A stretch of 64,000 nt of DNA from Psammoneis japonica (Eukaryota). How positions within the stretch are numbered: position 1 is the first letter of the stretch; each line of letters begins with the position of its first letter. Made by a program: the position numbers and the translations under genes. The stretch spans positions 186,001 to 250,000 of the forward strand of contig QPGO01000061.1 of the NCBI GenBank assembly GCA_008632985.1, given 5' to 3'. Shown here one piece after another: positions 9,011-64,000 of the stretch. Below the pieces are notes generated by a model, which worked only from the letters and a program-made list of their open reading frames with translations, was not told the origin of the DNA and ran no database searches.

Positions 9011-9395
9011 GACGCGTTCCACCCTAGGTGGGACTCCGTGTGACATTGGGCCCGTAGAATTCTACGTGCGAGCTCCGTAGTACGAGAATTTAATTAATGG
9101 ACACATTTGTCTTCAACATCAAATAAACGGTCAAGTTTGTGGTACAATTATGCCTCTTACCACTCGACGTTTTTGCAACTTCGCCTGCCCTACGCGATTC
9201 TTAAGACATTGTAGAATCGCGCTGTAACAAAAAATGTCAAAAGTTGTTGGACGGATCACTCAATAAGTGTACCGTAAAATGACACAAAATAAAAAATCAC
9301 GTAGAAATCTACGTGCGCGACATACGACGAGACTCAAAAAACTATCGATGTCACAGTTCAGTAGTACGAGGTCCCACCTAGACCTGGAACGCGTC
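9011..9395. mobile_element. MITE, GACGCGTTCCA-TIR family, pristine copy
   Basis: TIR gacgcgttcca...taggtgggac / gtcccaccta...tggaacgcgtc. 4-bp TSD GGAA on both sides. TA and CG are retained. Confidence 0.9.
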
Positions 9396-10405
9396 GGAAA
9401 TTGTAACATCTTGTTCAACAAACCTCAAAACTTGCAGTTTCTTTGCATGGGAAAGCCAAGGAGACACCAATTGTGAGAATGCAGGACACTTGGTTGAAGG
9501 AAGTGCACAGCACTTGACAGCGTCCTGGGAGAGGCCGAAGCGCGGCCACCGTTTCATGTAGAAACATGCAGAAATCATGCCAGAAAAAATTCCCAACAAT
9601 TTTCGTCTTGCACCACTTTGAGGGTGGTTGGTCACTGCTTTTTTTAGCTCAAATTTGACCAAACAGCTTGTGTTTTGCATGTTTTTTCCTGAATTTCACC
9701 GTGCTTCACTGTGGTGAAAAACCGCAAGCCAGAGCAAAGAGATGAAAAGAGCAAACAAACACCAAAGCATGGGTGGATGTCAGCAAAAAAAAAAAAACAC
9801 TGGCGCAAGACCACAGAGTGTGAACAACATTTCTTGCCACAAATCACTCCCAGAGAGTGTGTCCAAGACAGGGGATGCTTTTTGCAGTTGCAACAAAGAG
9901 ATGACAGCTGCAACTGTGCTCCACCCAGTGTGACAGCACAGCAGCCCTGACACAAACGGCTTCAAGTGGGTTTGTTTTGTGAGGCAGTCTTGAGTTGTGA
10001 GGTGTCATGATGGGACGTGTCATGTTGTGACGTGTTGTGACATGTCGTGTTGTGGCTGGCGTGTTGCACGCTGACAATTTTTTTAACTGCCCCGCCTGTT
10101 GAAATGTCATCACCAAAGTGCAGACAACGCACAAACATCATCAAACACAGTGTGTCACTGAACCAACCAATGTTTCTATCCAGATTGCAGCCAAAAATTG
10201 AATTTTGTCTCAAAAATCTCTTTTCCCGACAAATCATAAATCCATTCAAGGGGGGTCATCCCTGCCTTTGTCCTGAAATTTTGGTGGCATTTGAACAAGA
10301 ATGTTTGTGTGAGAGATTGTTGTTGAATGCAAAAACTGCTCTTGTTGTCACACCCGATTGCCAATCGCACACAAAAACGAGAACATCAAGCACCGCGATT
10401 GAAGC

Positions 10406-11007: not shown

Positions 11008-11406
11008 GATGTGTTCCAGCCCCAGGTGGGAGCTTGCAGCACTGATGTGTGACACAATTTATTTTTGTCATCCATTGCATGTTTTGTGCTTGCATTTCTG
11101 CGTGTGACATTGAAATTGTCCAGACTTGCCATTTTTGCGAAGCCCCAGACATTTCACATGACAAATGTGCAGGAACAACAGCACTCCAGTTGCATTCTTC
11201 AATGTCTGAAGAATGTGCCTGGCCAAGCAAAAAATGATGCACTTCAATCATGGACGAGTTTGTGCCGTCGCAAAATTGCCTCATTTTCCATTGGCAGTCA
11301 TTGACATTTTCATCACCTGACAATTTTTCTGCAGAGCTTGCATGCAGAATTCTGCGGGCCCAATGTCACACAAACTCCCGACTCCCACCCATGTCTGGAA
11401 TGCATC
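11008..11406. mobile_element. MITE, same family, heavily converted copy
   Basis: Aligns with 23048-23436. TIRs gatgtgttcca / tggaatgcatc; flanks TGTG and CACA. Confidence 0.85.
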
Positions 11407-14949: not shown

Positions 14950-17230
14950 ATGGAGGATGATGCGTTTTTGAACCTCTTGTCACACAGAAGGTTGGGGCAT
15001 TGAAAGAGCCATTGCATTGTGTGGCAAGGGCAGTGGCAGCACAGGCACATTTCTCAACACTGTCAAAGAGTGCATGTGTCAATTGAGTTTGAATTTGATG
15101 GCATTCAACCAGGACAATTGTGCTGTGCATCGTTTGTTGAAAGCTCACCTGGTCAGTGTGAAAGCGGTGAAAGAGATTGGGAGAGATGCCTTCTGGGCAT
15201 GAGCAGACCATTGCAGTGGACAGGGGGAGCTTGGCAAGTGTGCTCAGTTGGCACTGGCAAACATCAGGTCATTGCATCATAAGAACAAGCATTGTTTGTC
15301 ATTTGAATGGCACATGGCAAAGCTCACCAGTGCATTTGCAACCTTGGCAAAGGATGAGGACCAGTGTGAGACAGAGAGGAGAAAGCTCAGATTCTCCAGA
15401 GAGGGATTGCAGCCAACAGTGTTCTGCTGCAGGCTTGTGTTCCTGCAGTCAGTCAGCAGCATCCTTGTGACTTTCCTGGCATGTGTGAATTCTTTTCTGC
15501 CAAAGTTTCTTGTGTTTGCATGGTGCATGTCAGTTGGAGGCCCAGTGTTGTTCAAAGCACCAGACATTAGAAACATCCTGCGATGGAGGCCCAGACAAGG
15601 GCTTCAATTGTGGTGGCAGTTGAGGCCCCCAAGGAGGTGTTGGCAGAGGACATGGGCCTGGAGGCCATGGCAGGAGATGATTTGGTGGCAGAGGTGCAGG
15701 TGCAATGATTGACGGTGTGGATGTGGCGAATCCCACTTGCACCTTTCCCCCACATGAATGGCAGCAACTGTGAGGTTTGATGGTGGCCAAGTGCATGTCA
15801 TGCAAGCCCATGAGTGCATGGCCATGCAACAACAGCAGGAAAAACAACCAACTGATTCTGCAAGTGCAGGTTGTGGATGCAGACATGAGAATGAGAAAAG
15901 GGGCAGACACGGAGCAGATTTTGGTCGTGGTGCTCACACATGCACCTGACGGCATGGGGCAACAACCGCTTCAGCTTTGCTTGCATGTCATGTGAGCATC
16001 ATTGCATTGTCTCTGCTGTTGCCACTCATGCTGTCTAAACCCCACCCAAACAATGTCACAAAGAGTTTCCAAGGATCAAGGCAACCTCCAAAAGATTGGT
16101 GTGGTCAGCGAATGCCCAAGGACAATTTCAAGCAATGCAGTTCCCGGTCATGTGTCCTGCAACAAATGCAATGCCTGTGCAGACACGTGTGTTGCAGGAG
16201 TGAACTGGAAGTTGATGGAGACCACAACAAAACATGTGAAATGAACCCATTCCTTGAATTGCATGATCCAATTAAGCAAATTTTAGTTGCGCGATGTTGT
16301 GCTCCTGTTTGGACAGATCCAGATGCAACAACTGAACATTTGTTGGTCAGTGACCAGATGTTGTGGTTTGGACAGCAAATGGAACATTCCCTCATCAATC
16401 CAAATCAGTTGCGGGCATGCAACATCTCAGTGAATGACAACCCTTACAATCCCCAAGACAGCTTTGGCATTTCAACAGAAGAAGCCTTTGTCCCTTTTCA
16501 CACCATGGGGGCAGTTGTGCATTTTGAGTCTTGAGTGCCTGCAGAATGGGAGGAATGGAATTTGCTGGTTTTTTCACTTTACAGGCAATGCTTGGAATCC
16601 ATCGGAAGTTGACATGGGTTTCCTGAACAAGACTGCAGGGCAACAGGAGATGTGGACCATCCAATCATTGACACCTCACATGTGAAAGTCACATGCATCA
16701 CAGTCAAGAGCAGAGCAAGGTGAGTCTGCGGCAGTCCAATCCGGAGAAGCAGAGGAGGCCATGGCAAGCATTCTCCAGCTCATCACCTCCAGGTGTTTTT
16801 GTGACTGTGTGATTGCATCTGCAAAGATCGTGTGCACCCAGCACAGGGAGGACATTGGCAAGTTAGAGCAGAAAGTCTTGGAACTTTGCACAAAGGATCA
16901 GCACTCAAAGATTGCAACAGACAAGCCAGCACAGAAGTGGAACATTGGCCTGGATGTGGCAAAAGACACTCTCAACGTTACGACCAAGCAAGGTGTCAGG
17001 ACAGCAACACAACCATCATCAAGGCATGTTTGTGTGTGTCATTTGGATTTGCACTGGAAGAGACTAAAAAAGGAACATGGTTTGCTGACACTCTCACTTT
17101 AAAAGTTAAGCCCATTCTTGGCAGCACTTGTGCCAATGCTTGCACTCAGGGAAAGCTTGCAAAGGTTGCCCCAATGACAGCTTGGTCAGAGGTGGTCAAG
17201 TTTGCAGACAATGTTGGAGTGCCCAAGAGG
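14950..17230 (+). mobile_element. Degenerate Ty1/copia (CoDi-like) LTR retrotransposon fragment: gag, pre-integrase region and start of integrase
   Basis: gag-like GRDAF...HCSGQGELGK...LHHKNKHCLSFE..MAKLTSAFATLAKDED at about 15.2-15.4 kb; LWFGQQMEHSLINPNQLR at about 16.4 kb; WNIGLDVAKDTLNVTTKQGVR, GTWFADTL and FADNVGVP at about 16.9-17.2 kb. Many frameshifts; TpA-depleted. Confidence 0.7.
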
Positions 17231-17659
17231 CATCTTGCCCACCACATCAGTTGGGGAATGACTTCATTTGAACAGAGTGTGTTGGTGCTGCACTGTGTGC
17301 AGCTGCCCACTGCTAAGACTGCAAGCTCTTGTGGGGCAGGGGAGGACAAGAGCTTGCATCTTCTTGTTGTGGGTCAAGAAAAGATCACCCCACCCAGCGG
17401 CACAGTCTTTTTGATGACATGCTTCAGATTTCTTCCTCTTTTGAGCACCGAACTTTGATTGTCATGGTGATGTTGATGCAATGTGTTTGAATGGACTGCC
17501 ATGCCATGCCCTCACTTTGTTGTTGGCTTTCGCGCATGTGCACGTGTGCAATGAAGGTGTGCAGGGAAGCATGCAGCCTGTTCACAACAAACAAAATGGA
17601 CTTTGCTGGTGTGGCAATCTGAGGGAAATCTCCAGCCAGCTGCATCAGAGCGTCCTGAC

Positions 17660-18900
17660 CACCCTTCTCACAGGCAATTTTCAATGCCATCACAGGCACA
17701 AATGTAAAGGTTTCATTTTGAGTGAGTTGTGTAGACCGTGACTTTTTGCTGTGTGTCATGGAATGCCATTTTTCACCATGGGAGCCCACCTCATCCTGTG
17801 GGACCCCTCCCTCAACTGTCAGAATTCCGTCCCTTTTTACCTTTTCAATGTGAAGTTCAAAACTTTTGTTCAATGACAAATTGATGCTGATCAGTGCATT
17901 TCAACGGTTCAAGGAACCTCCCAATGCAAACACTGGTTGTCAAATCAAAGCATGGATCATGCAACAACAATCGCTGAAATGCTTCATTAAACCCAATGAA
18001 TGTTTGCATTGAAACCCAACACATTGCTTGTCCGCTTTCCATTCTCACACCAGCAAAAGCCCCCGATGCCTTTTCACACCGCAGCTTGCTCACTGCCAGC
18101 ATCTACACCCGTTTCGCTTCTTGCATCACTGTCTTCATCCTCCTCCTTGCTGACCTTGTCTTCTCTGTTTATTTCCGTCACCTCTTCTTCCTCCTTCTCC
18201 TCATTGTCACTTGAAAGCTCTGTCGTTGCTTGTGTTCTTGCCTCCTTCCCCACTGGCTTTTTCTTTCTTTTTGATCCCTTGCCTCTTTCGTCACTCTTCC
18301 TTTTCTTGCCTTCGCTGCACCATGTGTCGAGCTGCAACTGCATGCCCTCCTCACTCAACCTGTCTTCCTTCACCGATGCAAGCAGTTTGTTGAATTGCAA
18401 CATCCCTGCATCCTTCCACGAGTCGCGTTGCCTTGACGGGTCTGTGCACTTGGGTGTTGGTTCCGACTCTTCCTCATCCTCTTCGTCTGAGCCCCCCCCC
18501 CCCCCCCGCTCCAGCAGTCTTGTCATGATGTGCCTTGTGCTCCCAACTCTTCCAGCAGTTTTCCAACATCAACAGGCAGCCCCAGAGCCTTGTTGCTCAC
18601 TGCTGCCAGACCGGTTGCCTTTGTCTCACCCGACTCTACCTTCCTTCTCCATGTCACGGTGCTCTTTGTGAATTTCAGGATGTTTTTGTAGAACCAAACA
18701 TGCACTTCCTGGTTCTTGCGCTTGTCTTCCACAATCATCGTCACTGTCTCCTCCTCCCAAGTTGCCAGGAACGGCTCTTCATCTGCCGTCTGATCGTTCT
18801 TCTTCCTCTTCTTGCTTTTCTTCCCTCCTTTGCGTCTTGCTGCCGGTTTCTTCTGACCATGTGTCTCCTCGGCTTCGTTCTCTGTCAACACAACTTCAGC
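17660..18900 (-). repeat. Copy 1 of a degenerate transposon-associated ORF repeat; contains the empty site for the MITE at 25519
   Basis: Colinear with 25065-26690. Both encode WFxxNILKFTKST.TWRRKVESGETKATGLA..SNEAL.LLTLENCWKSW...PKCTDP.RQRDSWKDAGMLQFN.LL. Confidence 0.75.
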
Positions 18901-19389
18901 AAACAAGGGCGCAGCAGTGCCAAGTGCAACCACACTCAACATGCCGTGCACCACAAAACACTTGCCAGCCATTGCATTGTTCTTGATTGCCTGAGTGACC
19001 GTGCTCCTTTTTGCGTCAATCGCGTGCATGACACACTTCTTTGCCCAGTCTTCCCACGCTCCTGCCCAGTCTCACTTGCTGTAATTGCCACCGGCTGTCT
19101 TTTTCCTGATGAGCCATGACACTTTGCCACTGCTTGCCATGTCCGCCTTGACAAGGAACTTTGCCTTCAGCAACAATTCCTTCGGTGTCACCTCTTCCAC
19201 CTCTCTCTTTGTGGATAAATTGCCAAAAAGTGTGGAGCACATTGTGAGAGCACAAGGTAGATGAACAAACATGAGCCGCAACACAGACTTGCCAGTGCAT
19301 TGGTGCATCCGGCGCCACTGATTCCGGAGCAACATGGACGCCGGTGTGTGGTGCAAGACGTTTTGCTGCAATGACCAAGTTTGCCTTGC

Positions 19390-23047: not shown

Positions 23048-23436
23048 GACGCGTTCCAACCCTAGGTGGGAGCTCGTAGTACTGACGTGTGACACAAATA
23101 ATTTTTATTATCCGTCGTATGTTTCGTACGTAGGTTTCTACGTGTAAAAAAAATTGTCCAGACTCGCTGCTTTGCGAAGCCCCAGACGTTTTATATAACG
23201 AATTTATAGAAACAATAATGCGCCAGTTACATTCTTCAATGTCTGAAGAATGTAACTGGCTAAGTAAAAAATGATGTACTTCAATCATGGCCCAGTTTGT
23301 GCGTTCGCAAAATTGCCTCATTTTCTGTTGGTGATCATTGCCATTTTAATTACCGTATAATTTTACTATGGAGCTCGCACGTAGAATTCTACGGGCCCAA
23401 TGTCACACGGATTCCCACCTGCGTCTGGAACGCGTC
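23048..23436. mobile_element. MITE, same family, pristine copy
   Basis: Perfect 11-bp TIR and TSD AATC. A TA/CG-rich island inside a TA-free tract. Confidence 0.92.
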
Positions 23437-25064
23437 AATCATTCCTCATTTGACCCACCCAGAATTTCCACACAGATGAGAAAGACAACAACAAAAGAAA
23501 TTGAAACCAAACAAGGAAAAATTTAGTGTCGTAAGCTGCTGCATGCCAAGTGCAAGTGGATGCAACCAACACAATTTTTTCATCTGGCGGTTGACTTGTC
23601 TGGAGACTGCAGCTGCCAAAACTCATGAGCGCGCTGCACTCAATGATGACTCAATTCAGTGTCTCCTTGCTTGCGTCAACTGCACTTTTGCCATTGCCAA
23701 TGTCTCAACATGCTTCGCTGCATGTTGTTTGTGAGTGCAAGCTCTTGCATTGAAAGCGACCTTGAATGCTGTGCACAAAAATTCAAACCATGTGGGGTGC
23801 TGCCAATTGTTCAGTGAGCATCGCTGAACAATTTGCGTGGCTGCCAGCTGGAGTCTTCCCCCAGACAATGGATCTTCAACAATGATGATGAGCTCTCAAA
23901 AGATCTGCCATGCTGCGTCTTGTTTTGCTTTGCTGTTCCTTCAGTTGCCAGGGTTGCCGCTGCACAGTTGCAACCACCATGGTGAGTTGTTGCGTTTCCC
24001 TCTCTGAGTGTTGTTCTTGTCATTGCTGGTCTCACCAGCAAGAGCTCATCATCTGTTGTTGGCTTTCAACCTGCCGCATGCAAAATGCACAAACCCACTT
24101 TGAGCTTGACAAGAAAAAATGTTGCTGGAGTGACCCAGTCATTTGGCGGCTTTGACCAACTCAAATTGAATTGTTGTTCTGTTGAGAAGTCATCTTGTTT
24201 GAGAACGCACTCAACTGAGGATGAAAGCATTGGAGACGGCACTGTGTTCTCAAAAGAATTGGTCGTGGATGCTCTTGTCAAGTGTGGAGTGTCCATTGCA
24301 TCTCAGGTGGGCCTCCTTCATGGTGTGACCAAGTGATTGGATCTCGGCTTGGGAGCAGCAGATGTGTCTCTTCCATTCCCAGTGGGGTTGGTGCTCTTTT
24401 GTGGTCTTTCTCTCAAATCAAGAGTCTTCAATCCTTTTGACAACGAGCATTCCAACATCCAAAAAGCCTCTCAAAGCAAGGGATCTGCTGGATTCAAGGA
24501 TCGTGTCATGCCATCCTTTGTGCTGCCAGGTTTCATTTTTCCAATTGCTTGGATTCTTGTCAATGGTTTGTTTCAAGCCCATGCTTCTGCCCTTCTCCAC
24601 AGTGCAACTGGAGCTTTGGCAAGTCCAGCCATTCTTGCCTTTTTGTTTCACTTGTCTGTGGCAACATTTGGAGCACACAATCAATGACGCTGAACAATGA
24701 TGTGGAGTGTCAGCCACTGCAGTTCTTGCCGTTTGGGCATCAGCGGCCCATGTGGCATTCATGTGCAGCCAAGTGGATCCTCTGGTGGGCAAAGTGTTGG
24801 GAGGAACACACTTGTTTGGTTGACGCTTGTGTCATCTCTGGTGGTTGCCACCTGGCAGATTAATCCTGATGATGAAGGAAACTTGGACACACTCTGTCCT
24901 GCTCAAGGTGAGACCAAGATGGAGTTTGCATGGTTTGAGAAAAGCAAGGAAGACTGGAAACTTAAAAAAAGCTGCAAAGCAAGGTTTGATGCCAGCATGT
25001 TCTGGACATTGGCAAATTCTTTCGGTTCCAAGCACCAAATCATCATCAGAGTGTGAAATGCAGT

Positions 25065-26690
25065 GATCCTGACCACCCTTCTCACAGGCAACTTCTGACG
25101 CTGTTAAAGGCACAAATGCAAAGGTTTCATTTTGAGTGAGTTGTGTAGACCGTGATTTTTCATCACATGTCATGGCACACCATTTTTCACCATGGGACCC
25201 CTCCTTCACCTGTGGGACCCCTCCCTCAACTGTCAGAATTCCGTCCCTTTTTACCTTTTGAAAGCAATGTTCATGACGTTTTGTTCATTGACAAATTGGC
25301 GCTGATCATTGAGTTGCGCGTTGGTTTAAAGAACCTTCTGTTGCATGCACTGGTTGTCAAATGAAAGGTCAGATCATGCAACAATTGTCCCTAAAATGCT
25401 GTGTTGAACCTTGTGACTGTTCACATTGAAACCTGCTGCATTGCTTGTCCACTTTCCATTTGCACACTAACAAAAGCCTCCGCTGCCTTTTCACACCGCA
25501 GCTCGCTCATGAACTGCAGACGCGCTCCAGACGCAGGTGGGAATCCATGTGACATTGGGCCCGTAGAATTCTGCGTGCGAGCTCCGCATTAAAATTGTCA
25601 GGCAATTAAAATGTCAATGTTCGCCAACAGAAAATGAGGCAATTTTGCGAACGCACAAACTCGTCCATGATTGAAGAACATCATTTGTTGCTCAGCTGGG
25701 TGCATTCTTCAGACATTGAAGAATGTAACTGGCACGTTGTTGTTTCTATAAATTTGTCATGTAAAACGTCTGGGGCTTCGCAAAACAGCGAGTCTGGACA
25801 ATTTTTTTGAAATGTTGCACGTAGAAAAGTGCTCGCGAAACACACGACGGATGACAAAAATTTTTTGTGTCACACGTCAGCACTGCGAGCTCCCACCTGG
25901 GGCTGGAACGCGTCTGCATCTGCACTCGTTTCGCTTCCTGCATCACTGTCTTCCTCCTCCTCCTTGCTGTCCTCGTCTCCTCTGTTCTTGTCCGTTTCCT
26001 CTTCCTCCTTCTCCTCATCGTCACTTGAAAGCTCCATTGTTGCCTGGGTTCTTGCCTTCATCTCCACCGGCTTTTTCTTTCTTTTCGATCCCTTGCCTCT
26101 TTCGTCACTCTTCCTTTTCTTGCCTTTGGTGTGCCATGTGTCGAGCTGCATGCCCTCCTCACTCAACCTGTCTTTCTTTGCTTCCGCAAGCAGTTCATTG
26201 AATTGCAACATCCCTGCATCCTTCCACGAGTCTCGTTGCCTCAATGGGTCTGTGCACTTGGGTGTTGGTTCCGACTCTTCCTCATCCTCTTCGTCCGAGC
26301 CTGCCCCTGCTCCAACAGTCTTGTCATGACGTGCCTTGTGCTCCCAACTCTTCCAGCAGTTCTCCAGTGTCAACAGCGCCAGAGCCTCATTGCTCGCTGT
26401 AGCCAGACCGGTTGCCTTTGTCTCACCTGACTCAACCTTCCTTCTCCATGTCGTGGTGCTCTTCGTGAATTTCAGGATGTTTTCGCAGAACCAAGCATGT
26501 GCTTCCTTGTTTTGGCGCTTGTCCTCCACAATCATTGTCACTGTCTCCTCCCAAGTCGCCAGGAACGGCTCTTCCTCTTCCGCATGATCGTTCTTCTTCC
26601 TCTTCTTGCCCTTCTTCCCTCCTCCTCTGCCTCTTGATGCCGGCTTCTTCTGACTGCGCATCTCCTCGGCTTTGTTTTCTGTCAACACGA
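25065..26690 (-). repeat. Copy 2 of the degenerate transposon-associated ORF repeat, interrupted by a MITE
   Basis: Colinear with 17660-18900; contains ORF 25870-26688. Confidence 0.75.
25519..25914. mobile_element. MITE, same family, intermediate conversion
   Basis: TIRs gacgcgctcca / tggaacgcgtc; TSD TGCA. The paralogous site at about 18097 lacks the insertion. Confidence 0.92.
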
Positions 26691-26957
26691 CTCCAGCAAA
26701 TTAAGGTGCAGCAGTGTCAAGTACAACTGCACTTTACAACAACAGTGCAAGCAGCACGAGCACAATGACAACCGCCGCCATTGGGGTCGATCTCTTTGTC
26801 AGAATGTCGTTCTGCGACGCACTGTACCGGTGGTGCGTGGAAGCAACAACAAGCAACTTTCATTCGTGAACCGCGACCAGAAAGCGCGACCGAGCGAGCG
26901 AGCGAACCCGTCCACCACGCACAACATGCGTGTGCCATAGCTGCGCGCAGCAATTAT

Positions 26958-43983: not shown

Positions 43984-44871
43984 ATGAAGTTTGTTGCTTG
44001 TCTTGTTGTCACGTGGTTAACAATGGCTATCGGCTCGACAACTACTCGCAGTGCTAGGAACAGCATTGATTTCCCACCTCCCCATTTTTCTGGATGGAAA
44101 CACGAAAAGGTGTTCTTGAAAGCCAGTGATGGAACTAAAATTCGTGGTCATTCCAATGACAAAGGCTTGCCGCTTGGTGTTCCCTTTGAATTCGAGACTC
44201 CTCTTTTCAAAGGAAGAATGCTTGTCCGATTGCGAAACGCCAAATCTGACTCACCGGAACAGCACGATGCGTACTTTGAAGGACGTAAGCGGCTTATGCA
44301 GACTGTAGTTCAAGGAAAATTCAAGAAATCCGTTCCCATGTCTGATGTTTTCGTTGGGAGCCTCTTTGACAAACCTTTGAAGCAGGCGCCACCACCAGTT
44401 TTTGTCAGCATTTTGAACACGGTCATTAAGCGTGTTGCGCCCGGAGTCGTTCTTGATCTTGCCTCGGAAAAGCCCAAGATTCTTTCACTCTATGCGGGGT
44501 CTGCTCAAACACTTAGTGTTGATCTTCCGGGGGAGGAACCAGACATTACAGGAGTGGATATCCCCGAAAACGTGTCTCGGGCGTTTGGTGACAAGTTCAA
44601 GTCGGCTTCTTCGCGTAAGAAGAAAATGTCTACTCCCAAGTCGGCAGGGAAGTACGAGTTTGACACGGAACATGTCTACACGTTTCATACTTATGATGAC
44701 GCAATGGACTATGGCAACTACAGCATGCATCTTCCCATATATGGAGAGTATGACCTGAGTCAAGCTCTTGGTCCCCAGCCTCTAACACTCACGGCGATAA
44801 CGTCGCAAGGCGAACATGTATTCTCTTTTGATGTTTGGCATCAGAAAATCTACCCTCATCAAGAAACCTGA
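43984..44871 (+). CDS. DUF1769-family protein with signal peptide (paralogue 1)
   Basis: PFEFETPLFKGRMLVRLR...YFEGRKRLMQTVVQGKFK...FDTEHVYTF; hydrophobic N-terminus. Confidence 0.8.
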   Translation: MKFVACLVVTWLTMAIGSTTTRSARNSIDFPPPHFSGWKHEKVFLKASDGTKIRGHSNDKGLPLGVPFEFETPLFKGRMLVRLRNAKSDSPEQHDAYFEGRKRLMQTVVQGKFKKSVPMSDVFVGSLFDKPLKQAPPPVFVSILNTVIKRVAPGVVLDLASEKPKILSLYAGSAQTLSVDLPGEEPDITGVDIPENVSRAFGDKFKSASSRKKKMSTPKSAGKYEFDTEHVYTFHTYDDAMDYGNYSMHLPIYGEYDLSQALGPQPLTLTAITSQGEHVFSFDVWHQKIYPHQET

Positions 44872-45765: not shown

Positions 45766-46647
45766 ATGAAGGCTTTATCATGTATCGTTCCCTCTTTGTG
45801 CACGGTTGCTCTTGCCTCGACACGCAAAATCCTCGATATTCCTCCTCCCCACTTTTCCAGATGGCGACACAATCCAGTCTTCTTGAAAGCAAGCAGCAAG
45901 GACACCAAAGTCATTGGGCATCATTCGAAAGACGAGGGTTTACCACTTGGTGTGCCGTTTGAGTTTGAGACTCCTCTTTTTAAGGGACAAATGCTTGTTC
46001 GGTTACGAAATGCCAAGTCAGACTCACCGGATCAACACAATGCCTACTTTGCGGGCAATAGCAAGAGACTCATGCAGACTGTTGTCCAGGGTAAATTCAA
46101 GAGACCTGTTTCCATGTCTGACGTTTTTGTCGGAAGCTTATTCCGAAAACCTCTCAAGAAGGTACCACCACGTTGCTTTGTGCGTGTTATGAATACCATT
46201 GTCAGTCGAGTTTCACCAGGAGTAGTTTTGGATCTCGCCTCTCAGAAACCCAAGATTCTGTCTCTGTACGCTGGGTCTGCGCAGACCTTTAGCGTGGATC
46301 TGCCAGGAGATGAACCCGATATTTCTGGGAGGGATATTCCCGAAAATGTGTCTCGTGCATTTGGTCACAAATTCAAGTCCATCTCTTCCCGTCGAAAGAA
46401 AATGTCCTCACCCAAATCGGCGAAAAAGTACTGGTTCGACACGAAGCATGTTTATACCTTTCATATGCACGACGATGCCATGGATTATGCCAACTACAGC
46501 ATGCATCTTCCCATGTATGGTGACTATGATCTCAGCCAGGCTCTAGGGCCTCAGCCCATGACCCTTACGGCCGTGACTTCCAAAGGTGACTACCTCTTTT
46601 CTTTTGATGTCTGGCACGAGAAAGTCTACCCCCGCGAGGAACTTTAA
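45766..46647 (+). CDS. DUF1769-family protein with signal peptide (tandem paralogue 2)
   Basis: Colinear with and highly similar to 43984-44871; ATG at 45766. Confidence 0.8.
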   Translation: MKALSCIVPSLCTVALASTRKILDIPPPHFSRWRHNPVFLKASSKDTKVIGHHSKDEGLPLGVPFEFETPLFKGQMLVRLRNAKSDSPDQHNAYFAGNSKRLMQTVVQGKFKRPVSMSDVFVGSLFRKPLKKVPPRCFVRVMNTIVSRVSPGVVLDLASQKPKILSLYAGSAQTFSVDLPGDEPDISGRDIPENVSRAFGHKFKSISSRRKKMSSPKSAKKYWFDTKHVYTFHMHDDAMDYANYSMHLPMYGDYDLSQALGPQPMTLTAVTSKGDYLFSFDVWHEKVYPREEL

Positions 46648-51933: not shown

Positions 51934-52330
51934 GATGTGCTCCAGATGCAGGTGGGAATCCATTTGACACATTGGGCCCATGAAATTCTACGCACAAGCT
52001 TTGTGCTAAAATCATGAGGCAATGGATGTGTCAATGATTGCCAACAGAAAATGAGGCAATTTTGTGAATGCACAAACTCGGCCATGATCAAAGCACATCA
52101 TTTTTCACTTGGCCAGGTGCGTTCTTCAGACATTGAAGAATGCACCTGGTGCATTATTTACCCACAATTTTGTCAAACAAAATGTCTGTGGTTTTGCAAA
52201 ACAGCGAGTCTGGAGCAATTTTTTGTAAGATCACAAGTGGAAATGCAAGTGCAAAACATGCAATGGATGACAAAAAATGATCACGTCAAATGTCAGTGCT
52301 GCCAGCTCCCACCCAGGGCTGGAATGTGTC
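51934..52330. mobile_element. MITE, same family, heavily converted copy
   Basis: Aligns with 52658-53036. TIRs gatgtgctcca / tggaatgtgtc; flanks CCCA/TCCA. Confidence 0.85.
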
Positions 52331-52657
52331 TCCAACCAGCACCAGTGCAGCACATGCCATGATGCTGTCAACGTGAAGGAAAATGGTGGGGGTTTTGGCT
52401 GGGTGTCATTGAAAACCCTTGTGCCACCAACTGACCAGCTAAAAATTAATTTGAGGTTTTGCGTGACATCATGCTCAGTGGCATGGAAAATCGGCAACAA
52501 AATTTGTGGCTTGTCAACACAAAATTAGAAATGGCTTGCATTTGCGCACATGACAATGCCAGTGACAAGGTCTGGCCATCGCAGCTTGCACACATGTCAG
52601 TGGCAGGTCTGATCTGGCCAATTGCTGCCCAAAGCAGAAACACTTTCGTTCGCACTT

Positions 52658-53036
52658 GACGCGTTCCAGACGTAGGTGGGAATCCGTGTGACATTGGGCC
52701 CGTAGACGTAAAAATTATACGGTAATTAAAATCTCAATGATCGCCAACAGAAAATGAGGCAATTTTGCGAACGCACAAACTCGCACATGATTGAAGTACA
52801 TCATTTTTTACTTAGCCAGTTACATTCTTCAGACATTGAAGAATGTAACTGGCGCATTATTGTTTCTATAAATTTGTTATATAAAACGTCTGGGGCTTCG
52901 CAAAACAGCGAGTCTGGACAATTTTTTTTAAATATCACACGTAGAAATCTACGTACGAAACATACGACGGATGATAAAAATTATTGTTGTCACACGTCAG
53001 TATACTACGAGCTCCCACCCAGGGCTGGAACGCGTC
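52658..53036. mobile_element. MITE, same family, pristine copy
   Basis: Perfect 11-bp TIR; TSD ACTT; TA/CG-rich. Confidence 0.92.
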
Positions 53037-53174
53037 ACTTGCCACACACAAAAATGAGAGAAAGTGGCCAATTTTTTGTTTTGTGGTCGACTTTCTGTGC
53101 AACCAGTGTGAGCTGAAGTGCTGCCTGCCTGCCAAAAATTGGGAGACATGCAGAATGGGCACCAGAGGCTGTGC

Positions 53175-53571
53175 AGCGTGTTCCAGCTCTGGGTGGGACC
53201 TCGCACTGCTGCGCTGTGACATCAAGAGTTTTTTGGATCATGTCACACATCACGCACGCAGATTTCTGCATGTGATGTTCTGTGAAATTGTTTCATGCTC
53301 CCCATTTTGCAAAGCCAAAGGCTTTCCATTTTCAACATTTGTGAGAGTGAAAATGCTCTGGGTGCATTCTTTGATGTCTGCAGAGTGTGCCTGGGCAAAC
53401 TGTCAATGATGTGCTGCAAGTGTGAAGGAGGAGACACATTTGCAAAATTGCCTCTTTTTCTGTTGGCGATCATTCACATTTTCGTTGCTCAACAAATTTG
53501 CTGTGGAGCTCGCACACAGAATTCTGTTGGCCCAATGTCGCGCAGAGTCCCACCCAGAGCTGGAACCCGTG
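53175..53571. mobile_element. MITE, same family, converted copy
   Basis: TIRs agcgtgttcca / tggaacccgtg; TSD GTGC. Confidence 0.8.
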
Positions 53572-57568: not shown

Positions 57569-58944
57569 CTAGAAGAACTTTCCCATTTGATAATTTATTT
57601 CGCCTAGTTGTTGAGTGGAGGAGTCTCTACAGTAACTCCGCACGCTACAAAATGACAGGTGGCAACTACTAGCGGAGCCCTGAAATGAATCGGAAATGTG
57701 GAGACAATATGTGTGTTCGACAACCCAACAACAAACCGATGCTACCTGCCTCCAGAGGATAGCGCAAAATTATCTCTACCGCATCATAAACTACTTCTGC
57801 ACAAGTTATCAAAGCGTTGACAGCCAACAAACCGAAGCTGATAATTATTTGTTCATTGGATGGGGTGAGATGACAAATTTTTGGAATCAAGCAGTCAAGG
57901 ATGAAGATGACCGAAAGACACCCGTGACTGATGTGACTTACAAAAATGCATTCCATCTCATGGCTTGTTGGCAAGAGTTCAGAAGGAAAGGGAATGTCGT
58001 GGCAACTGTTCTGCCAGTGAAGGAGGCGAACAGGAACTTGAGACGGGAGTTGAGAGGACCATCTCGAACAACAGACATTGCTTTCCTTGAAAGCAGGAAA
58101 ACAGCAGGAAGGACTCCTCGCAGTGAGCCGGCATCAGAATCAATGGAGGATGATCTGAAGCCACACTCTGTTTTTGAAGACGACCAAAAGATTCCGACCG
58201 TTGTTGATTTCCACAGCACAGATGATGATGCTGACTTTCTTCCAACAGCTAAAGACGACCACAATGTGGGCGATGCAAAAGATGCAGAATCGCCATCACA
58301 AGAGCCTGTTGCTGTCCTTCCTTTCACAGGCAAATGATGCATCAAGGGAGGTGGAGGCACTGCTGTTGCTCAGGGAGTGGTCAGGATGGGGAGATGCATT
58401 GTTGAGGCCAAAATGGAAGAATGATTAACACCGGGGAAACCTGTGAAAATGTCGGCAGAGAGCGCGTGGGCTGTCATTGTCACCAACCTGGACAGTGTGC
58501 AGGTTGTGACAGGGGTGTGACATTGTTGTTTGGCAGATGACAGATCGAAGGACAGCTTGTGAAGTGTGCAGAGGGAGAAAGGGACAGGCGCCAGAGATGG
58601 CAGAAACAGAGCAAAACAGAGAGGAAAAAGCTCATGAATGCAAGGAACAGGAGGGACAAAACACACGCAAACTTAACAAGTTCAAAATGCAAACTAATTG
58701 AGCCACGCAGGTGACTTGAAACACACAAAAACAATCAAATCATTCATCACTTGACAACTGCAAAACAACAAAATCAACAACCATGCAAATTGAAGATTGG
58801 TGGAGACAACTGGTGTGCATGTGAAAATTTTGTTTGTCAACAAGTTTGGCTCTTGTCAAGTGCCAAAACATGTCACAGACGGCAATGTTGGTTGTTGTTG
58901 ATGGTGCTGCAATGGCTGTGTCATGCATTGCAAGCTCTGGCGAG

Positions 58945-59340
58945 GATGTGTTCCAGCTCAAGGTGGGGCCTTGTGTTGCTGAAGTGTGACATCAAGAGTT
59001 TTTTGGATTGTGCCACATGTTGCACACGCACACATCCATGTGTGATCTTTTGCGAAATTGCTCTACACTTCCTGTTTTGTGAACCCAAAGGCTTTCCATT
59101 TTCAACATTTGTGAAAATGAGAATGGGCTGGGTGTGTTCTGCGATGTGTCCGCAGAATGCAGCCGGGCAAACTCAATGATGTGCTTGAGTGTGAATGAGG
59201 AGATGTGTTGTCAAAATTGCCTCTTTTGCTGTTGGCGACCACTCACATTTTCATTGCTTGACAATTTTGCTGCGGAGCTTGCGTGTGAAAACACACGGCC
59301 CAAATGTTGCACTGAGTCCCGCCCAGGGCTGGAATGCATC
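58945..59340. mobile_element. MITE, same family, converted copy
   Basis: TIRs gatgtgttcca / tggaatgcatc; flanks CGAG/CAAG. Confidence 0.8.
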
Positions 59341-59739
59341 CAAGCTGTCTTGGTCTTTCAAACTTCCCAAACTTGCCCTTTGTCAATGAGGTGCCATTGG
59401 GTCCCTGGGGCACTGCCCATGTCAGGAATGAAAATTTCCAACATCAGACTGTTCGCACTCGGGATTGGAGTCCACAACCTGAGGTGAGGACTTGGCTCGA
59501 TGGGTCATCCTGTTGTCATTCAACTGCTGACAACACCGCTGACAAGGAGAAGCACCGCCATGTGGACCGAGACACGACTCGATCACAGCACTGTGGGGCC
59601 AGACATCTCTTGCTGCAAACGCAACCTGCAGGTGCAAACAATGTGCAAGCATGTGCTGCATCATTGCAGCATGTGCTGTTGCAAAATTGCCTCTTTTTCT
59701 GTTGTTGGCAATCATTTTTAACATTCATCATCTGATTCC

Positions 59740-62700
59740 TTTCACACAACAAAGAGCTTTCAACAATGTGACACATTCGCACAAGCAGGGCCCGAGCAAA
59801 TCTAGCTGCCGAACAGGCTCAGCCACTCACAGTCTTGGTGCGACAGCGCGAATGCAACCGACAAGATGCTTCTGGGCCTGTTGCAACTACAACAGATGCA
59901 ACAAGTGAAAACCATTCCGTGGTCATCGGCATTTTGGTCCGCACACCAGTCACAGTTTCTCCACAGCACCTCCCAGAGCACACCAGACAGTCCCTGATGC
60001 ATCGGATTTCACTCGGTCCCCTCGAAATGTGCCTGACTCGTAAGGCACAATTCGATCCAATGCTGCATCAGTGGTCTAACTGAAACAATCTTGACTTGTC
60101 GATCGACGTAAAACCCTTGCCAGGGAAAAGCCGCCAATCCTCCATGCATGGTGCAAACCCTCACCAGGGAAGAAACTCACCACCGCTCCATGCATCCATC
60201 TCAATGCGCGAACTTGTCTAACAGAAAATTCCGCCTGATGGACGACACAACCTTCATGAACAGATCGCCAAGGTTTGTCTCTGTTCCCTCCTTTGCAATC
60301 CTAACAGTCCCCGCAGCAACAGCTTCGCAGTTGCGGTGATGCGCAATGGAGTGATGCTTCTTCTTGAGTGTAGACTCAGGAATGGAGCAATTCTTGTAGA
60401 TGGCCTCATTGTCACAGAAGACATTTGTTGGCCCTTCGATCGGCACTCCAAACATTCGAAGCTTGTGTCGCAGGCCCTCTGTGAGCTCGATGGCACTCTT
60501 GAGTGCAACGATCTCAGCCCCAAATGTGCTAGCCTCCACGGCATTCTGACACTTCGAGTGCCACACGATGGGTGCCCGGTTAACAAACATCAAGATGCCT
60601 GCATGGCTGCGGCGATCGGCAACATTTCTGGCATGGTTGGCATCCACAAAACAATGTGTCGACACCACATTACCTCAAGCTGGTGGTGCATTTGTCAGAA
60701 TGGCTTCTCTTGCATCTCGGTGGAAGTCGCACCAGTCGCACTTCACGAATCGTGATTCATCGATCTTGGGATGAGCCGGATCAAATGCTGCTTGGCACTT
60801 TGGGACCTGTTTGAGGCATGCAAAGATGTGCAACACCTGTTCCAGATGACCAATGCGAGGAAGAGCGAGGTGAGCAGACATTGACGAAACCTCCAAATGG
60901 ATGTCCACTCTGCCGAGTTCCACAGCCCAAACCAGTGTGCCAATCAGCTCTTGACAGCAGTGAAGTCCTTCAGCGTCCAACTCGCCAGCAGTGTCTAACT
61001 GGGTTTGCATCCACTGCTCAATGGGGTTGTCGCCTTGCCAGGCAGACGTTTCCCCTCCTTGCCAAGCCTGTCCTCTACATTTTGGACAGCGGACTTGCAG
61101 TGCTTCTCCGCAGACATTGGCCAACAGGCAGTCCCATCGGCTGAAGTCATCTTGGAAAGCGCAGCACCGAGACAAGAATCTGGCTCAGCTACCTCATCAC
61201 CCTTGAGCTTGAACTTGGACCTGATGCCATCCATTGTCTTCATGGGTTCGTGACTGATCGACAGCATGTCGTCCACATAAACTAGAACGTGTTCGCAGTG
61301 CTTGAATCCGTTGGGTTTCACCGCAGGTCTCATCCATGCATCCGGATCAGCCTTGCTCGGTTTGCACCCCAGATCATAAAGCGTCTCCACCAGGAATGCC
61401 CTGAACGCTGCTCCGGAGCTCTTCAATCCGTGTGGAGCCCTGACCACAATCATGATGCAACCTTCATCCTCGCCAAACTCGGGCCCTGCTCTGGTCCAAA
61501 TCTTCTCCCTGCAAGGGGCAGCAAGGCAGGCGTTCTGGGTGTCACATGCAAAGACTTGTGAGTCATTGAGCGCAGCAAGCGTCAGTGCAATCCTCACCGA
61601 ATCCCGAGAGACGACCGAGGAGCAAGTGATGTGTGCGGGGGTTTCAGCAGTGTGGCCTCCAGCCACCATGTGAGCTTTACGGCGGAAGTTTTCTCCCAAT
61701 TTGACATCAAAAATCACACGACACTTCACTTCCTGGAAACCAGGCACCATGTCCTTAAGCTCCCCTTCACACTTGTCAAAAGCAATCCACACATTCTTCA
61801 TCTCCATGCAAATGGCGTCCCACCACAGGGTGTTGCCATTTGCGCGATCGATCTGGATCGCCTCCTCGACACTCTTCGGGATCCGTGTGCCAAATTTGTG
61901 TGTTCGTAGCCAATGCTTCGACTTGACCTTCGCAATGGAACGCTTGCGGGTTTTCATGACATGGGGAACCCACCAAGCAAACGCTGCCTCGTTCGAGATC
62001 TTGCACTGAATGGCAAACTCGGCAACTTGGACTGGGAAGCTCTCCTTCGCAATCTTCAAGTCGATCCAAGTAGCACTTCCATCCTTCCATTGAAACAAGA
62101 GTTCCCATCCTTTGGCAGTCTTGCGCCTCTTCCGAATGCCTTGCTCGGTCTCAAAGAACTCGGATTCAGGAACGTCCCCGTTGGTGCGGCAATCAACGAT
62201 CTCGTCAAATGAGACATGCCGGTTTCCGTCCTTGTCGATCTGAGCAAACATGTTCATGGCGATGGAGTTAGCAGAGAGTGCAGCATGGTGCCCATCAGGG
62301 TGCTCTGCCTCATGCATCCTTGCATCAAGGATGGGATTGTCATTGGCTGTTCCTGTCGGAATGCCATTGGCATCTCTCAACCTCTTCGTGACACGAGCAC
62401 ACTCAGGACCATCATCATCTCTTGGAAGCGCAACTTCCATGTTAAGGTGTCCCCAGTCCGCCGCCTCCGGTGAGGCTTCCTTGTCTTTCTTGTCGTCATC
62501 GTCATTTGTTGCCTCCTCTGAGGATGTGACACGATCACACTCATCGAGGAATTCATCGTCGTATCCAAGGCAGTCTTTCCAGTCTTTGGGACTGATCTTG
62601 CGATCCTCGTCATCGGGGAAGTCTTGCTCCTTCAACCGGCGCTTGATCTCCTCGTCAAAACTGTCAAACTTCGCCTTTTTCTCTTGAGTGGCGGCTTCTA

Positions 62701-64000
62701 AATTGGTGACTCGTTGAACAGAAGTTCTCGAAATGACACTGCCTGTCTGTGTCAAAACGTAACACGACATGAGACTCCCTGTTCTGTGAGACACACCAAG
62801 CCACCCGCCGAGCTTCTCGTCCCCTGGACCGGCATTCTCCCTGTGCCAGACCCAATCATAAAATCCAAAGTCAAGGCACTCCGAGATGTCCACGGTCTCT
62901 CCGAGAACGTTCTCCAGTGGTGCTCCAGCATCCAAATGATGTGCTCTAAGGAACGTGTGAGACATGGTCTCACATGTCCATGTAAATCCGCAGTCCCACA
63001 GTCGCCGCGGTGCTTGCTTCTTGACCATGATGCGGAACCACTTGCGTCCAACCTCACGTACAACCCCTTCTGCAGGATTCTGGTTGTGTCGATCGGGTTC
63101 GATGATGTGACAATCTGTGCCCTCCTTGCGCACGGTCTTCACGAACTCCGTGCCAGGTTTTGTTTGCTCCTTAGATCCATCCATCAGGAGTTTCTCTGGC
63201 ACGCCAAATTCCTGGCAAAACATCTTGAGAGCCTCACCAGCCTTGCTCTTCTTGTCCATGGGATAAATCGCAGCAAAGCATTGCTTGTTTGTAAAGATCT
63301 GGGCATGTCGATTGCCCTCTGGCGAAACCACCTTGCCATCAACCGTGTCGGTTGCCCATTCACCCCGTAACCTGGGCTTCGTGAACATCCGATCGGCCCG
63401 ATGGCATCAACCCATTGGCATCAACGCTGACCTGATGAGCTTTTGCGCAGTCTTCTTGAGCATGCTTGCTGCTTGCTTGAGTCCTGTGCACCATCGTTCA
63501 CTTGAGTCAGCAACCGACACATCACTGTGTCTCTCCTTGGACATGAATGTCTTCGGGAGTGCCAAGTCTTCAGGTCCTTCGCCGACAGTTTCCGTGGCAG
63601 AGATCTGGACTGTTGGCTCCGATTCCACATTAACGGCGGCTGTGAGCCTTGATTGGACTTGATCGACTCCACAAATGAATTGCTCATTGCAACAGTCCCC
63701 GGACTGAGGGTTGCTGCAGGCAGGATCAGCTTTGAACTCGTGTGTCAGATTGGCGTGGATCGTCGCAATTGACCGAACTAGCTCCATTTCCTCCTCCGCA
63801 GATCGTCGAGTTCCAATGGATTTGAACTCAACGGTCTGTGGATCCCAAGGTTGTTGGGAGGTCATCTGGATCTTGGGGCATTCGTGCAATTCCTGCTCTG
63901 CAGGAGTGCGAGTTGCCGCAACAATGTTGGTTCCCACAGCTTCAAGCGGCATCATGAAAGATCTGTCCTCTGTGAGGATGTGCAGTGGCGAATCGGAGCA
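59740..64000 (-). mobile_element. Ty1/copia (CoDi-like) LTR retrotransposon, 3' part; continues beyond the window
   Basis: Integrase-RT-RNase H domain order. Polypurine tract GAGGGGA on the minus strand at about 60017-60023. Putative 3' LTR at about 59740-60016, with an uncertain left boundary. Confidence 0.85.
60201..63955 (-). pseudogene. copia pol (integrase, reverse transcriptase, RNase H), frameshifted and hypermutated
   Basis: FCQEFGVPEKL..DGSKEQ, HNQNPAEGVVRE, FRRKAHMVAGGH, GLKSSGAAFR, VLVYVDD, FVDANHA, FCDNEA and LKKKHHSIA. Frame breaks near 63390, 61000 and 60670. Confidence 0.9.

Follow-up and report, generated by a model that had tools for sequence, protein, structure and literature searches.

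Tyrosine codons of a broken copia element in the diatom Psammoneis japonica were recoded by strand-symmetric transitions at TpA

How can a transposon gene lose nearly all of its conserved tyrosines and still contain a long open reading frame (ORF)? The question is raised by a Ty1/copia retrotransposon at the end of a 64,000-nucleotide stretch of the Psammoneis japonica assembly (contig QPGO01000061.1, positions 186,001 to 250,000 of the forward strand; the whole stretch is referred to as the window). The element encodes a copia-type pol on the minus strand at 60201-64000, near-complete yet broken. An inspection of the letters alone (below, the sequence-only reading) had pointed to a 797-amino acid (aa) ORF in which conserved TA-containing codons seemed to be systematically recoded through TA>CA and TA>TG changes. 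Here we show that the underlying process acts at the level of DNA and on both strands, that it is an A:T to G:C transition specific for TpA, blind to coding and confined to repeat domains, and that it proceeds faster per site than the decay of CpG. The element itself very probably belongs to a multi-copy Ty1/copia family of the kind that diatoms contain, as a dead copy hit by this TpA>CpA/TpG process in double-stranded chromosomal DNA, with slower CpG decay alongside.

In a protein search, 1956 of the 8000 candidates scored gave matches with E<=0.001. The best 120 homologs are 53-63% identical to the query, and the matches listed include a homolog from the diatom Fragilaria crotonensis (56% identity). 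The ORF (60995-63388, minus strand) contains only six Tyr, exactly as had been counted. This is 0.75% of its residues, below the minimum of the homologs (3.51% when the 120 are pooled, range 2.73-4.13%, median 3.46%), while Cys (3.26% vs. 1.60% in homologs) and His (3.14% vs. 2.49%) are more frequent. A first alignment of the ORF, with the 60 homologs that come first by id among the 120, yielded 22 conserved Tyr columns, three of them kept and 19 changed. For the main alignment, the pol was read through in full, each stop being written as X, and compared with the 94 of the 120 homologs that have at least 1300 aa, and a column was considered conserved if at least 80% of these 94 agreed. The copy is changed in 114 of the 616 columns thus defined. 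Tyr is conserved in 27 columns, each showing it in 76-94 of the 94 homologs; the copy keeps it in three, and has His in 12, Cys in nine, and Phe in three. The resulting ratio of 3 kept to 24 changed columns can be compared with 499 to 90 at all other conserved columns (odds ratio 44, Fisher p=5.5e-16). Some residues are barely affected, namely Asn (kept in 21 of 21 columns), Trp (21 of 21), Phe (31 of 33), and Lys (32 of 37).

The same pipeline was applied to four control relatives, L001, L003, L008, and L011, which are those with long open frames among eleven related metagenome loci. In the intact L001 and L003, 25 Tyr are kept and two changed, and 28 are kept and two changed, respectively, with TA-type changes accounting for 1 of 104 and 2 of 91 altered columns. 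The respective values are 19 kept, 11 changed, and 3 of 272 for L008, and 18 kept, nine changed, and 2 of 245 for L011. Thus, the possibility that intact relatives themselves carry His or Cys at the positions in question does not hold: they carry Tyr (25/27 in L001 and 28/30 in L003). The 13 segments that the sequence-only reading had flagged were compared with the consensus of the 94 homologs, and every flagged His or Cys stands at a Tyr position, the proposed ancestral Ile, Leu, and Val being likewise recovered, with the qualification that conservation is only 50-80% for the T of D-T-R-M and for the Tyr replaced by the VWHREN His, by the final His in DARMHEAEH, and at two of the three FKHCEH sites.

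The direction and context of the changes were derived from the same alignment. For each changed column, the codons of the consensus residue were examined for one that is a single step away from the codon observed, and the context of this step was recorded. The 114 columns are divided into TA>CA (25), TA>TG (17), CG>TG (10), CG>CA (2), other A:T>G:C (5), other G:C>A:T (5), transversions (27), and multi-step changes (23). Hence 42 of the 114 can be explained by one TA>CA or TA>TG step, compared with one or two in L001 and L003. An even spread of substitutions over all A/T contexts was not observed, as 42 A:T>G:C changes at conserved columns fall at TpA vs. five elsewhere, and the AAY codons of Asn are intact (21/21). 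The amino acid alignment with homologs is sufficient to fix the direction of mutation with no need for a repeat consensus, in line with the earlier claim that it can be fixed independently of the MITEs. Beyond Tyr, the recodings comprise Ile>Thr (6), Val>Ala (3), Leu>Ser (3), and Leu>Pro (2), with the codon now ending in CA in all but one case; the exception is an Ile>Thr change with ACC, classed under other A:T>G:C. Five of the six Thr>Ala changes are preceded by T, forming a cross-codon TA.

The composition of the element bears the same mark. The observed-to-expected ratio (o/e) of TpA amounts to 0.15 for 60201-63955 (0.17 for the ORF), whereas TG and CA reach 1.43 and 1.47, and CG is 0.72-0.74. 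In the homologous stretch of the eleven metagenome loci TA o/e is 0.31-0.84, and in the two closest relatives with an unbroken ORF it is 0.72-0.78, with CG at 1.19. A minor class of changes can also be observed: of the five A:T>G:C changes outside TpA at conserved columns, four are CpA>CpG steps. The window differs from nearly all sister contigs (described below) at 62672, 62806, 63142, and 63754 in having CG instead of TG, and at 62806 and 63142 the consensus of the 94 homologs (Arg and Met, respectively) makes the window state the derived one, that is, A>G after C with a new CpG.

Both DNA strands are affected, because Tyr>His (12) and Tyr>Cys (9) are balanced and unclustered. The products of both strands are present, with 25 TA>CA and 17 TA>TG changes, and their order along the element comprises 21 runs vs. 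21.2 expected (z=-0.08). Strand-coordinated bursts were looked for by this runs test, and no clustering of CA vs. TG was found. Loss of TA is also similar in all codon classes. At codon positions 1-2, 2-3, and 3-1, there remain 5.5, 7.8, and 11.8 TA per 1000 codons, compared with about 40, 52, and 47 in L001 and L003, so 75-86% were lost in each class. The process is therefore blind to coding and acted on a copy no longer under selection. A different pattern is seen in L011, an intact 1321-aa copia relative whose ORF starts from base 1. The TA of Tyr codons are retained there (30 per 1000 codons), TA at positions 2-3 and 3-1 amount to 17 and 24 vs. about 50 in L001 and L003, CG o/e is 0.29, and TG and CA are about 1.5. 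Possibly, L011 is an active element that experiences this same pressure of mutation but whose Tyr are held by selection.

Why, then, does the frame stay long? The genetic code provides the answer: TA>CA and TA>TG make no stop from a sense codon and destroy TAA and TAG, as the sequence-only reading had argued. When decay of the L001 and L003 frames was simulated with 80% TA loss alone, no stop appeared in 500 runs for each. With 30% CpG loss added, 2.4-2.9 stops per 1275 codons were obtained, and two are observed. Since simulated decay matches the observed number of stops, the length of the ORF can be explained without selection and does not mark the element as young. Both in-frame stops are CGA>TGA changes, because homologs have Arg at these columns. 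The first, at 63407-63409 on the minus strand, is a CpG-type change (Arg in 94 of 94 homologs) and bounds the ORF upstream; the second lies at 60675-60677 on the same strand (Arg in 90 of 94). The six-frame stops of the element, 25 TAA, 19 TAG, and 159 TGA, amount to 2.67 per 100 codons, compared with about 3.7 in gene-like DNA of the window. Thus, the 797-aa ORF is real, but it is merely a part of a pol broken by two in-frame TGA codons and one frameshift. Similarly, inactivation by missense changes, as it had been proposed, describes the action of TA decay, under which the frame remains open, but not the whole history of this copy, which also suffered the two nonsense changes and a 1-base frameshift.

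The identity of the element is supported by several observations. The ORF matches the copia-type reverse transcriptase domain RVT_2 of Pfam at residues 566-728 (E=5.1e-10, 39.8 bits vs. a cutoff of 31.6), compared with 66.8 and 66.7 bits for the intact homologs P0001 and P0004. Upstream of the reverse transcriptase about 560 conserved residues can be aligned to full-length homologs, and no Pfam match to the rve domain was found either in the query or in the intact homologs. According to tblastn with P0001 and P0004, Pfam, and the homolog search, the pol remnant at 60201-64000 (minus strand) includes a putative integrase region, reverse transcriptase, and ribonuclease H, and corresponds to residues 146-1383 of P0001 (1383 aa). 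Residues 146-1117 of P0001 map to 63988-61001 and residues 1110-1383 to 61025-60204 in another frame, which places the 1-base frameshift, from frame -1 to frame -3, at 61000-61025 (minus strand). The gag N-terminus and the 5' long terminal repeat (LTR) fall past the window end at base 64000. On the other side, repeat depth stays high to about 59600-59800, and heterogeneous loose ends of contigs from a public run (X1) begin at 59793. Based on this depth and these ends, we tentatively place the 3' end of the element near 59793 and regard 59793-60200 (minus strand) as a probable 3' untranslated part with the 3' LTR. Residues 378-400 of the ORF show a weak similarity to EF-hand_1 (20.5 bits, short of the cutoff of 25.4) in a segment that is conserved across copia homologs.

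The element has lost CpG as well, and the two losses can be ordered. The sequence-only reading held that loss of TpA runs ahead of loss of CpG, and o/e, codon class, the comparison of Arg with Tyr, 500-bp windows, and, in addition, a repeat family all agree with it. The ORF has a TA o/e of 0.17 vs. 0.72-0.78 in the closest intact relatives, and a CG o/e of 0.74 vs. 1.19. By codon class, the loss of CG is 22-37% (36, 45.5, and 66 per 1000 codons vs. about 46, 72, and 96). Of 30 CGN codons at conserved Arg columns, 23 are still present and seven (23%) were lost by CpG-type changes, for comparison with a loss of 21-24 of the 27 conserved Tyr (78-89%). Across the whole stretch, eleven 500-bp windows combine TA below 0.2 with CG of at least 0.7, and only two, both borderline, combine CG below 0.4 with TA of at least 0.3.

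The repeat family is an inverted-repeat element of about 390 bp with several copies in the window, for which two unmutated copies serve as the ancestral proxy. These copies, at 23048-23438 (plus strand, TA o/e 0.92) and 52656-53036 (minus strand, TA o/e 0.86), have CG at 1.4-1.6, and the few differences between them are mostly TA vs. TG or CA. An early stage of decay is represented by 25519-25914 (minus strand), where 17 of 24 TA are lost, 13 of them to CA or TG, and only 4 of 21 CG. In two late-stage copies, 11013-11406 (plus strand) and 51941-52330 (minus strand), 24 of 24 and 23 of 24 TA are lost, respectively, together with 17 of 21 and 18 of 19 CG. Taken together, the three mutated copies lost 71-100% of the ancestral TA, 13-21 of 24 having become CA or TG, and show transitions at 3-6% of other A/T sites. 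The choice of CA or TG at identical sites differs among them, the outcomes being independent in each copy. Two more divergent copies, 53172-53570 and 58948-59340, lost all TA, but are given less weight, as 14-15% of their other A/T sites are changed. Since unmutated copies occur in depleted domains, the process either does not run continuously or does not strike each repeat automatically, which indicates an episodic or triggered mode.

The survival of TpA depends on the flanking bases. It was estimated for each NTAN tetranucleotide by comparing 33 kb of windows with TA o/e below 0.2 to 22 kb of windows with TA o/e of at least 0.45. ATAT is absent from the former set, compared with 156 occurrences in the latter. 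Survival is 0.01 for both ATAC/GTAT and ATAG/CTAT, 0.04 for GTAC, 0.06 for TTAT/ATAA, 0.10 for CTAG, 0.11 for CTAC/GTAG, 0.16 for GTAA/TTAC, 0.36 for CTAA/TTAG, and 0.57 for TTAA. Of the 32 TA remaining in the element, 17 are preceded by T and one by A, and all three surviving conserved Tyr codons have the form T-TAT. Which strand was mutated can be asked for 73 polarised events, of which the repeat family contributes 52 and the Tyr codons 21. Where exactly one strand has A after TA, it is the other strand that was mutated in 23 of 32 cases (p=0.02), and a ranking of the base following A as T>C>G>A is not significant as a whole (37/62, p=0.16).

The signature is confined to repeat-derived regions, with neighboring genes spared. 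TA o/e is about 0.45-0.85 in gene-like zones of the window, where CG is about 1, and 0.00-0.2 in repeat zones. On the two sides of about 58000, segments of 250 bp contain 6-16 and 0-2 TA, respectively, and TA remains scarce from there to the end of the window; gene-like DNA at this point borders sharply on an older, more decayed flank of the element (58001-59792; TA o/e 0-0.13, CG 0.17-0.54), which includes the 390-bp copy at 58948-59340. The non-coding flanks carry the same signature as the element, or a deeper one, and since the flank is more decayed than the element, the process must have acted repeatedly or over a long time. A second decayed transposon is present in two copies 80-85% identical to each other (18099-18936 vs. 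25916-26733, and 17653-18092 vs. 25067-25509); adjacent CA/TG doublets account for 10 of 20 and 8 of 23 double differences in these pairs vs. 4 of 36 and 1 of 60 in two duplicate pairs from gene zones, which again points to independent outcomes. A weak copia gag-like similarity (36% identity to residues 67-178 of P0001) is found at 16217-17024 in an old block depleted of both TA and CG. Two tandem genes with Duc1 domains, 43984-44871 and 45766-46647 (Pfam E=7.7e-49 and 3.6e-46; 73.5% DNA identity), have normal TA content, and a neighboring 7tm_3 receptor gene has 11 homologs.

Sister copies of the element were collected from run X1 (Logan contigs), in which 2046 contig pieces are at least 80% alike to the window over 58001-64000. 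They differ from it at 556 places by transitions and at 105 by transversions, and the 40 best-supported of these 661 variant places were compared. In nearly all sister contigs position 60677 is G on the plus strand, giving CGA in place of the downstream stop, and three sister contigs have one extra base behind 61000, at the frameshift (424 of 1043 in summed depth). These data fit independent decay of many copies. In the TA-depleted stretches, X1 differs from the window at two of 1114 bases (58001-59114) and one of 575 (59253-59827), with a word depth of about 60-68 on unique parts. Beside the element, at 59001-59400, summed X1 depth reaches its top of about 6000-9600 vs. about 65 for unique DNA; this very abundant repeat overlaps a decayed copy of the 390-bp family.

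How does the history proposed for the element stand against these data? The element would have integrated into the chromosome and then been mutated as double-stranded DNA, through an A:T to G:C transition at the TpA step that could strike either strand with equal chance, coding consequences being ignored. Decay of CpG to TpG or CpA would run in parallel, more slowly, as the sole source of nonsense codons, so that Tyr, ATA-Ile, NTA-Leu, and GTA-Val would be recoded while the frame remains long. Several points weigh against this reconstruction. The ancestral state was taken from homologs at most 63% identical and from a different repeat family, not from a reconstructed founder of the element. 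Three unmutated 390-bp copies (23048-23438, 52656-53036, and 9011-9393; TA o/e 0.86-0.92, CG 1.4-1.6) lie within strongly TA-depleted domains. Among the 40 variant places, near-unanimous differences of the element from its sisters are mostly of the CpG type (11) and only one is of the TA type, the others being adjacent CA/TG doublets (2), other transitions (9), and transversions (4); private erasure of TA and inheritance from an already mutated, later duplicated source are not separable from these sister data. X1 may be the source sample of the window, so it gives no independent confirmation of the base calls. Finally, the flank preference obtained from polarised events is weak.

The agent is presumably a dedicated enzyme, the simplest being a DNA adenine deaminase that would read 5'-T-A, disfavor A as the next base, and defend the genome by acting on the DNA of transposons or heterochromatin. 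The TA step is palindromic, so an identical trace would be left by thymine chemistry on the opposite strand. A rather unlikely explanation dispenses with a mutator and invokes error-prone patch repair, or poor repair, in methylated, silent chromatin, for instance, translesion synthesis at T:G mismatches arising from deamination of 5-methylcytosine. The coincidence of TA-depleted and CpG-decaying domains speaks for it; repair that restores CpG while miscopying nearby TpA would fit the earlier loss of TA, and the A:T phase of antibody hypermutation, which involves polymerase eta, favors A after A or T. However, the observed specificity is far tighter than A/T before A, as AAY codons of Asn (21/21) and Lys codons (32/37) are kept; in the repeat family 71-100% of TpA is lost compared with 3-6% of other A/T sites, ATAT is gone while TTAA keeps 57%, and unmutated repeat copies in the same domains argue against a simple domain property. 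Two further candidates were rejected: GC-biased gene conversion, as the changes are TpA-specific, and ultraviolet T-A photoproducts, as the process is domain-confined and yields transitions.

The remaining alternatives seem still less plausible than repair. Modification of TpA in repeat chromatin might cause systematic base-calling errors, so that CA and TG became fixed in the assembly; symmetric modification of the palindromic TA could yield TG from one strand and CA from the other, thus imitating the even, unclustered outcome. We regard this as improbable, since the family copies are in graded states accompanied by ordinary substitutions and CpG decay, and genuine de novo TpA mutations were found by Illumina sequencing in another alga, according to the accessible part of a preprint (Mettrop et al., bioRxiv 10.64898/2026.01.13.699255). 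X1 contigs also match the TA-depleted stretches almost exactly, which is not decisive, as X1 may come from the same sample. Hyper-editing (A to I) of the retrotransposon RNA before reverse transcription, followed by integration of the edited cDNA, is harder to believe. It is suggested by the nature of the element and by the 5' U preference, which resembles ADAR-type editing, a likeness discussed in the accessible part of the same preprint. Such editing would produce A>G on the coding strand alone, and hence Tyr>Cys, while 25 of the 42 TA-type changes are T>C and Tyr>His (12) is no rarer than Tyr>Cys (9). Editing of plus-strand RNA is rejected because of this strand-symmetric outcome; moreover, the same signature is found in non-coding flanks and in the short inverted-repeat family, and copies differ in outcome at the same site. 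The least credible explanation is that His and Cys are normal residues of this lineage, or that selection acted on amino acid or codon usage. All that favors it is that the closest homolog is only 63% identical. It is refuted by the 76-94 of 94 homologs with Tyr at each column, by the control relatives, by the absence of any value below 2.73% Tyr among the 120, and by the equal loss of TA from synonymous and non-synonymous codon classes; moreover, the copy carries two stops and a frameshift. Mutation of integrated double-stranded DNA at TpA thus remains the preferred explanation.

Several consequences follow from this explanation. At this locus a TpA signature near saturation is seen in a diatom-type retrotransposon, with its direction obtained from an amino acid alignment. 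The locus contributes controls with intact relatives, a codon-class test, the Arg-vs.-Tyr comparison, the origin of stop codons, and a simulation of ORF persistence. Recoding of Tyr to His or Cys can serve as a quick protein-level marker of the TpA process, and long ORFs in TA-erased DNA are no evidence for recent activity or selection. As TA is lost before CpG, the pair may be used as a two-speed clock for insertion age. If the mutator is enzymatic, it would represent a natural DNA adenine-editing activity, relevant to both genome-defence biology and base-editing technology.

Among known systems, repeat-induced point mutation (RIP) of Neurospora and other ascomycetes shares with this locus dinucleotide-preferring transitions on both strands of repeat or transposon DNA and the killing of elements in place. 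RIP changes C:G to T:A mostly at CpA, thereby creating TpA together with numerous stops. At this locus the direction is opposite: TpA is destroyed (TA o/e 0.15), Tyr codons are lost rather than gained, and no stops are possible. As to duplicates, the multi-copy 390-bp family retains unmutated members and the Duc1 tandem (73.5% identity) is untouched. The identity of the Duc1 pair lies, however, below the similarity usually quoted for RIP. Fungal DNMT4/RID is linked to RIP in the accessible part of one report (PMC9998398). CpG decay of methylated transposons, caused by deamination of 5-methylcytosine, is present here as a second, slower process, responsible for 12 conserved-column changes including both nonsense codons, with CG o/e at 0.72; it can account neither for the loss of TpA nor for the Tyr>His/Cys recoding. 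The diatom CoDi copia elements have a copia-type reverse transcriptase (RVT_2) like the one found here, judging from the accessible part of their description (Maumus et al., 2009, PMC2806351), and marine and freshwater metagenomes contain hundreds of close homologs of this copia pol. The words dinucleotide, point mutation, and degenerate are all absent from the text of PMC2806351, and none of six relevant words occurs in the text, supplements aside, of a 2025 preprint on diatom transposons (10.1101/2025.10.24.684338). A full-text literature search gave no description of a TpA process in diatoms, and the sole precedent found is the preprint on the chlorarachniophyte Bigelowiella natans (10.64898/2026.01.13.699255).

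As far as the accessible part of the latter goes, integrated giant-virus and virophage DNA of B. natans undergoes TpA-restricted hypermutation, de novo TpA>TpG/CpA mutations were measured in mutation-accumulation lines, and an adenine deaminase acting on DNA is proposed, the candidate being a homolog of tRNA adenosine deaminase. Within the same part of the preprint, the likeness to our locus is extensive. In both cases nearly all changes are A>G and T>C, at TpA only, with strand-dependent TpG or CpA and in foreign-derived regions, and the long-term trace consists of clustered 1-kb windows in which TpA is low and CpA+TpG high. In B. natans, reverse transcriptase and DDE domains are enriched among TpA-poor coding sequences, a feature that may be compared with the copia pol here, and only some lines mutate, which fits the unmutated repeat copies. 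The differences are as follows. B. natans belongs to Rhizaria, whereas the present host is a diatom; the rate was measured directly there, and the end state alone is seen here; erasure is deeper here (TA o/e 0.15 in the element and 0.00-0.1 in older repeats vs. 0.45 in a B. natans viral region). The coupling to CpG decay is a further difference, and so is the dependence on flanking bases, with ATAT gone and TTAA largely spared, no such dependence being found in the preprint text available.

It is conceivable, though on balance doubtful, that diatoms and chlorarachniophytes share an old context-reading mutator of double-stranded DNA, recognizing 5'-T-A followed preferably by T or C and sparing TTAA. 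It would be a stramenopile-alveolate-rhizarian defence against transposons and integrated viruses that mirrors fungal RIP but kills by missense changes only. If so, the leftover DNA would be rich in long open frames and might give rise to de novo genes or to mis-annotated ones. Fungal RIP and animal APOBEC are established cases of targeted hypermutation of selfish DNA at cytosine, and the A:T-to-G:C counterpart at TpA is otherwise represented by one 2026 preprint on an unrelated alga. The locus described here is a further case of this barely described kind, for which B. natans provides the one precedent found (10.64898/2026.01.13.699255).

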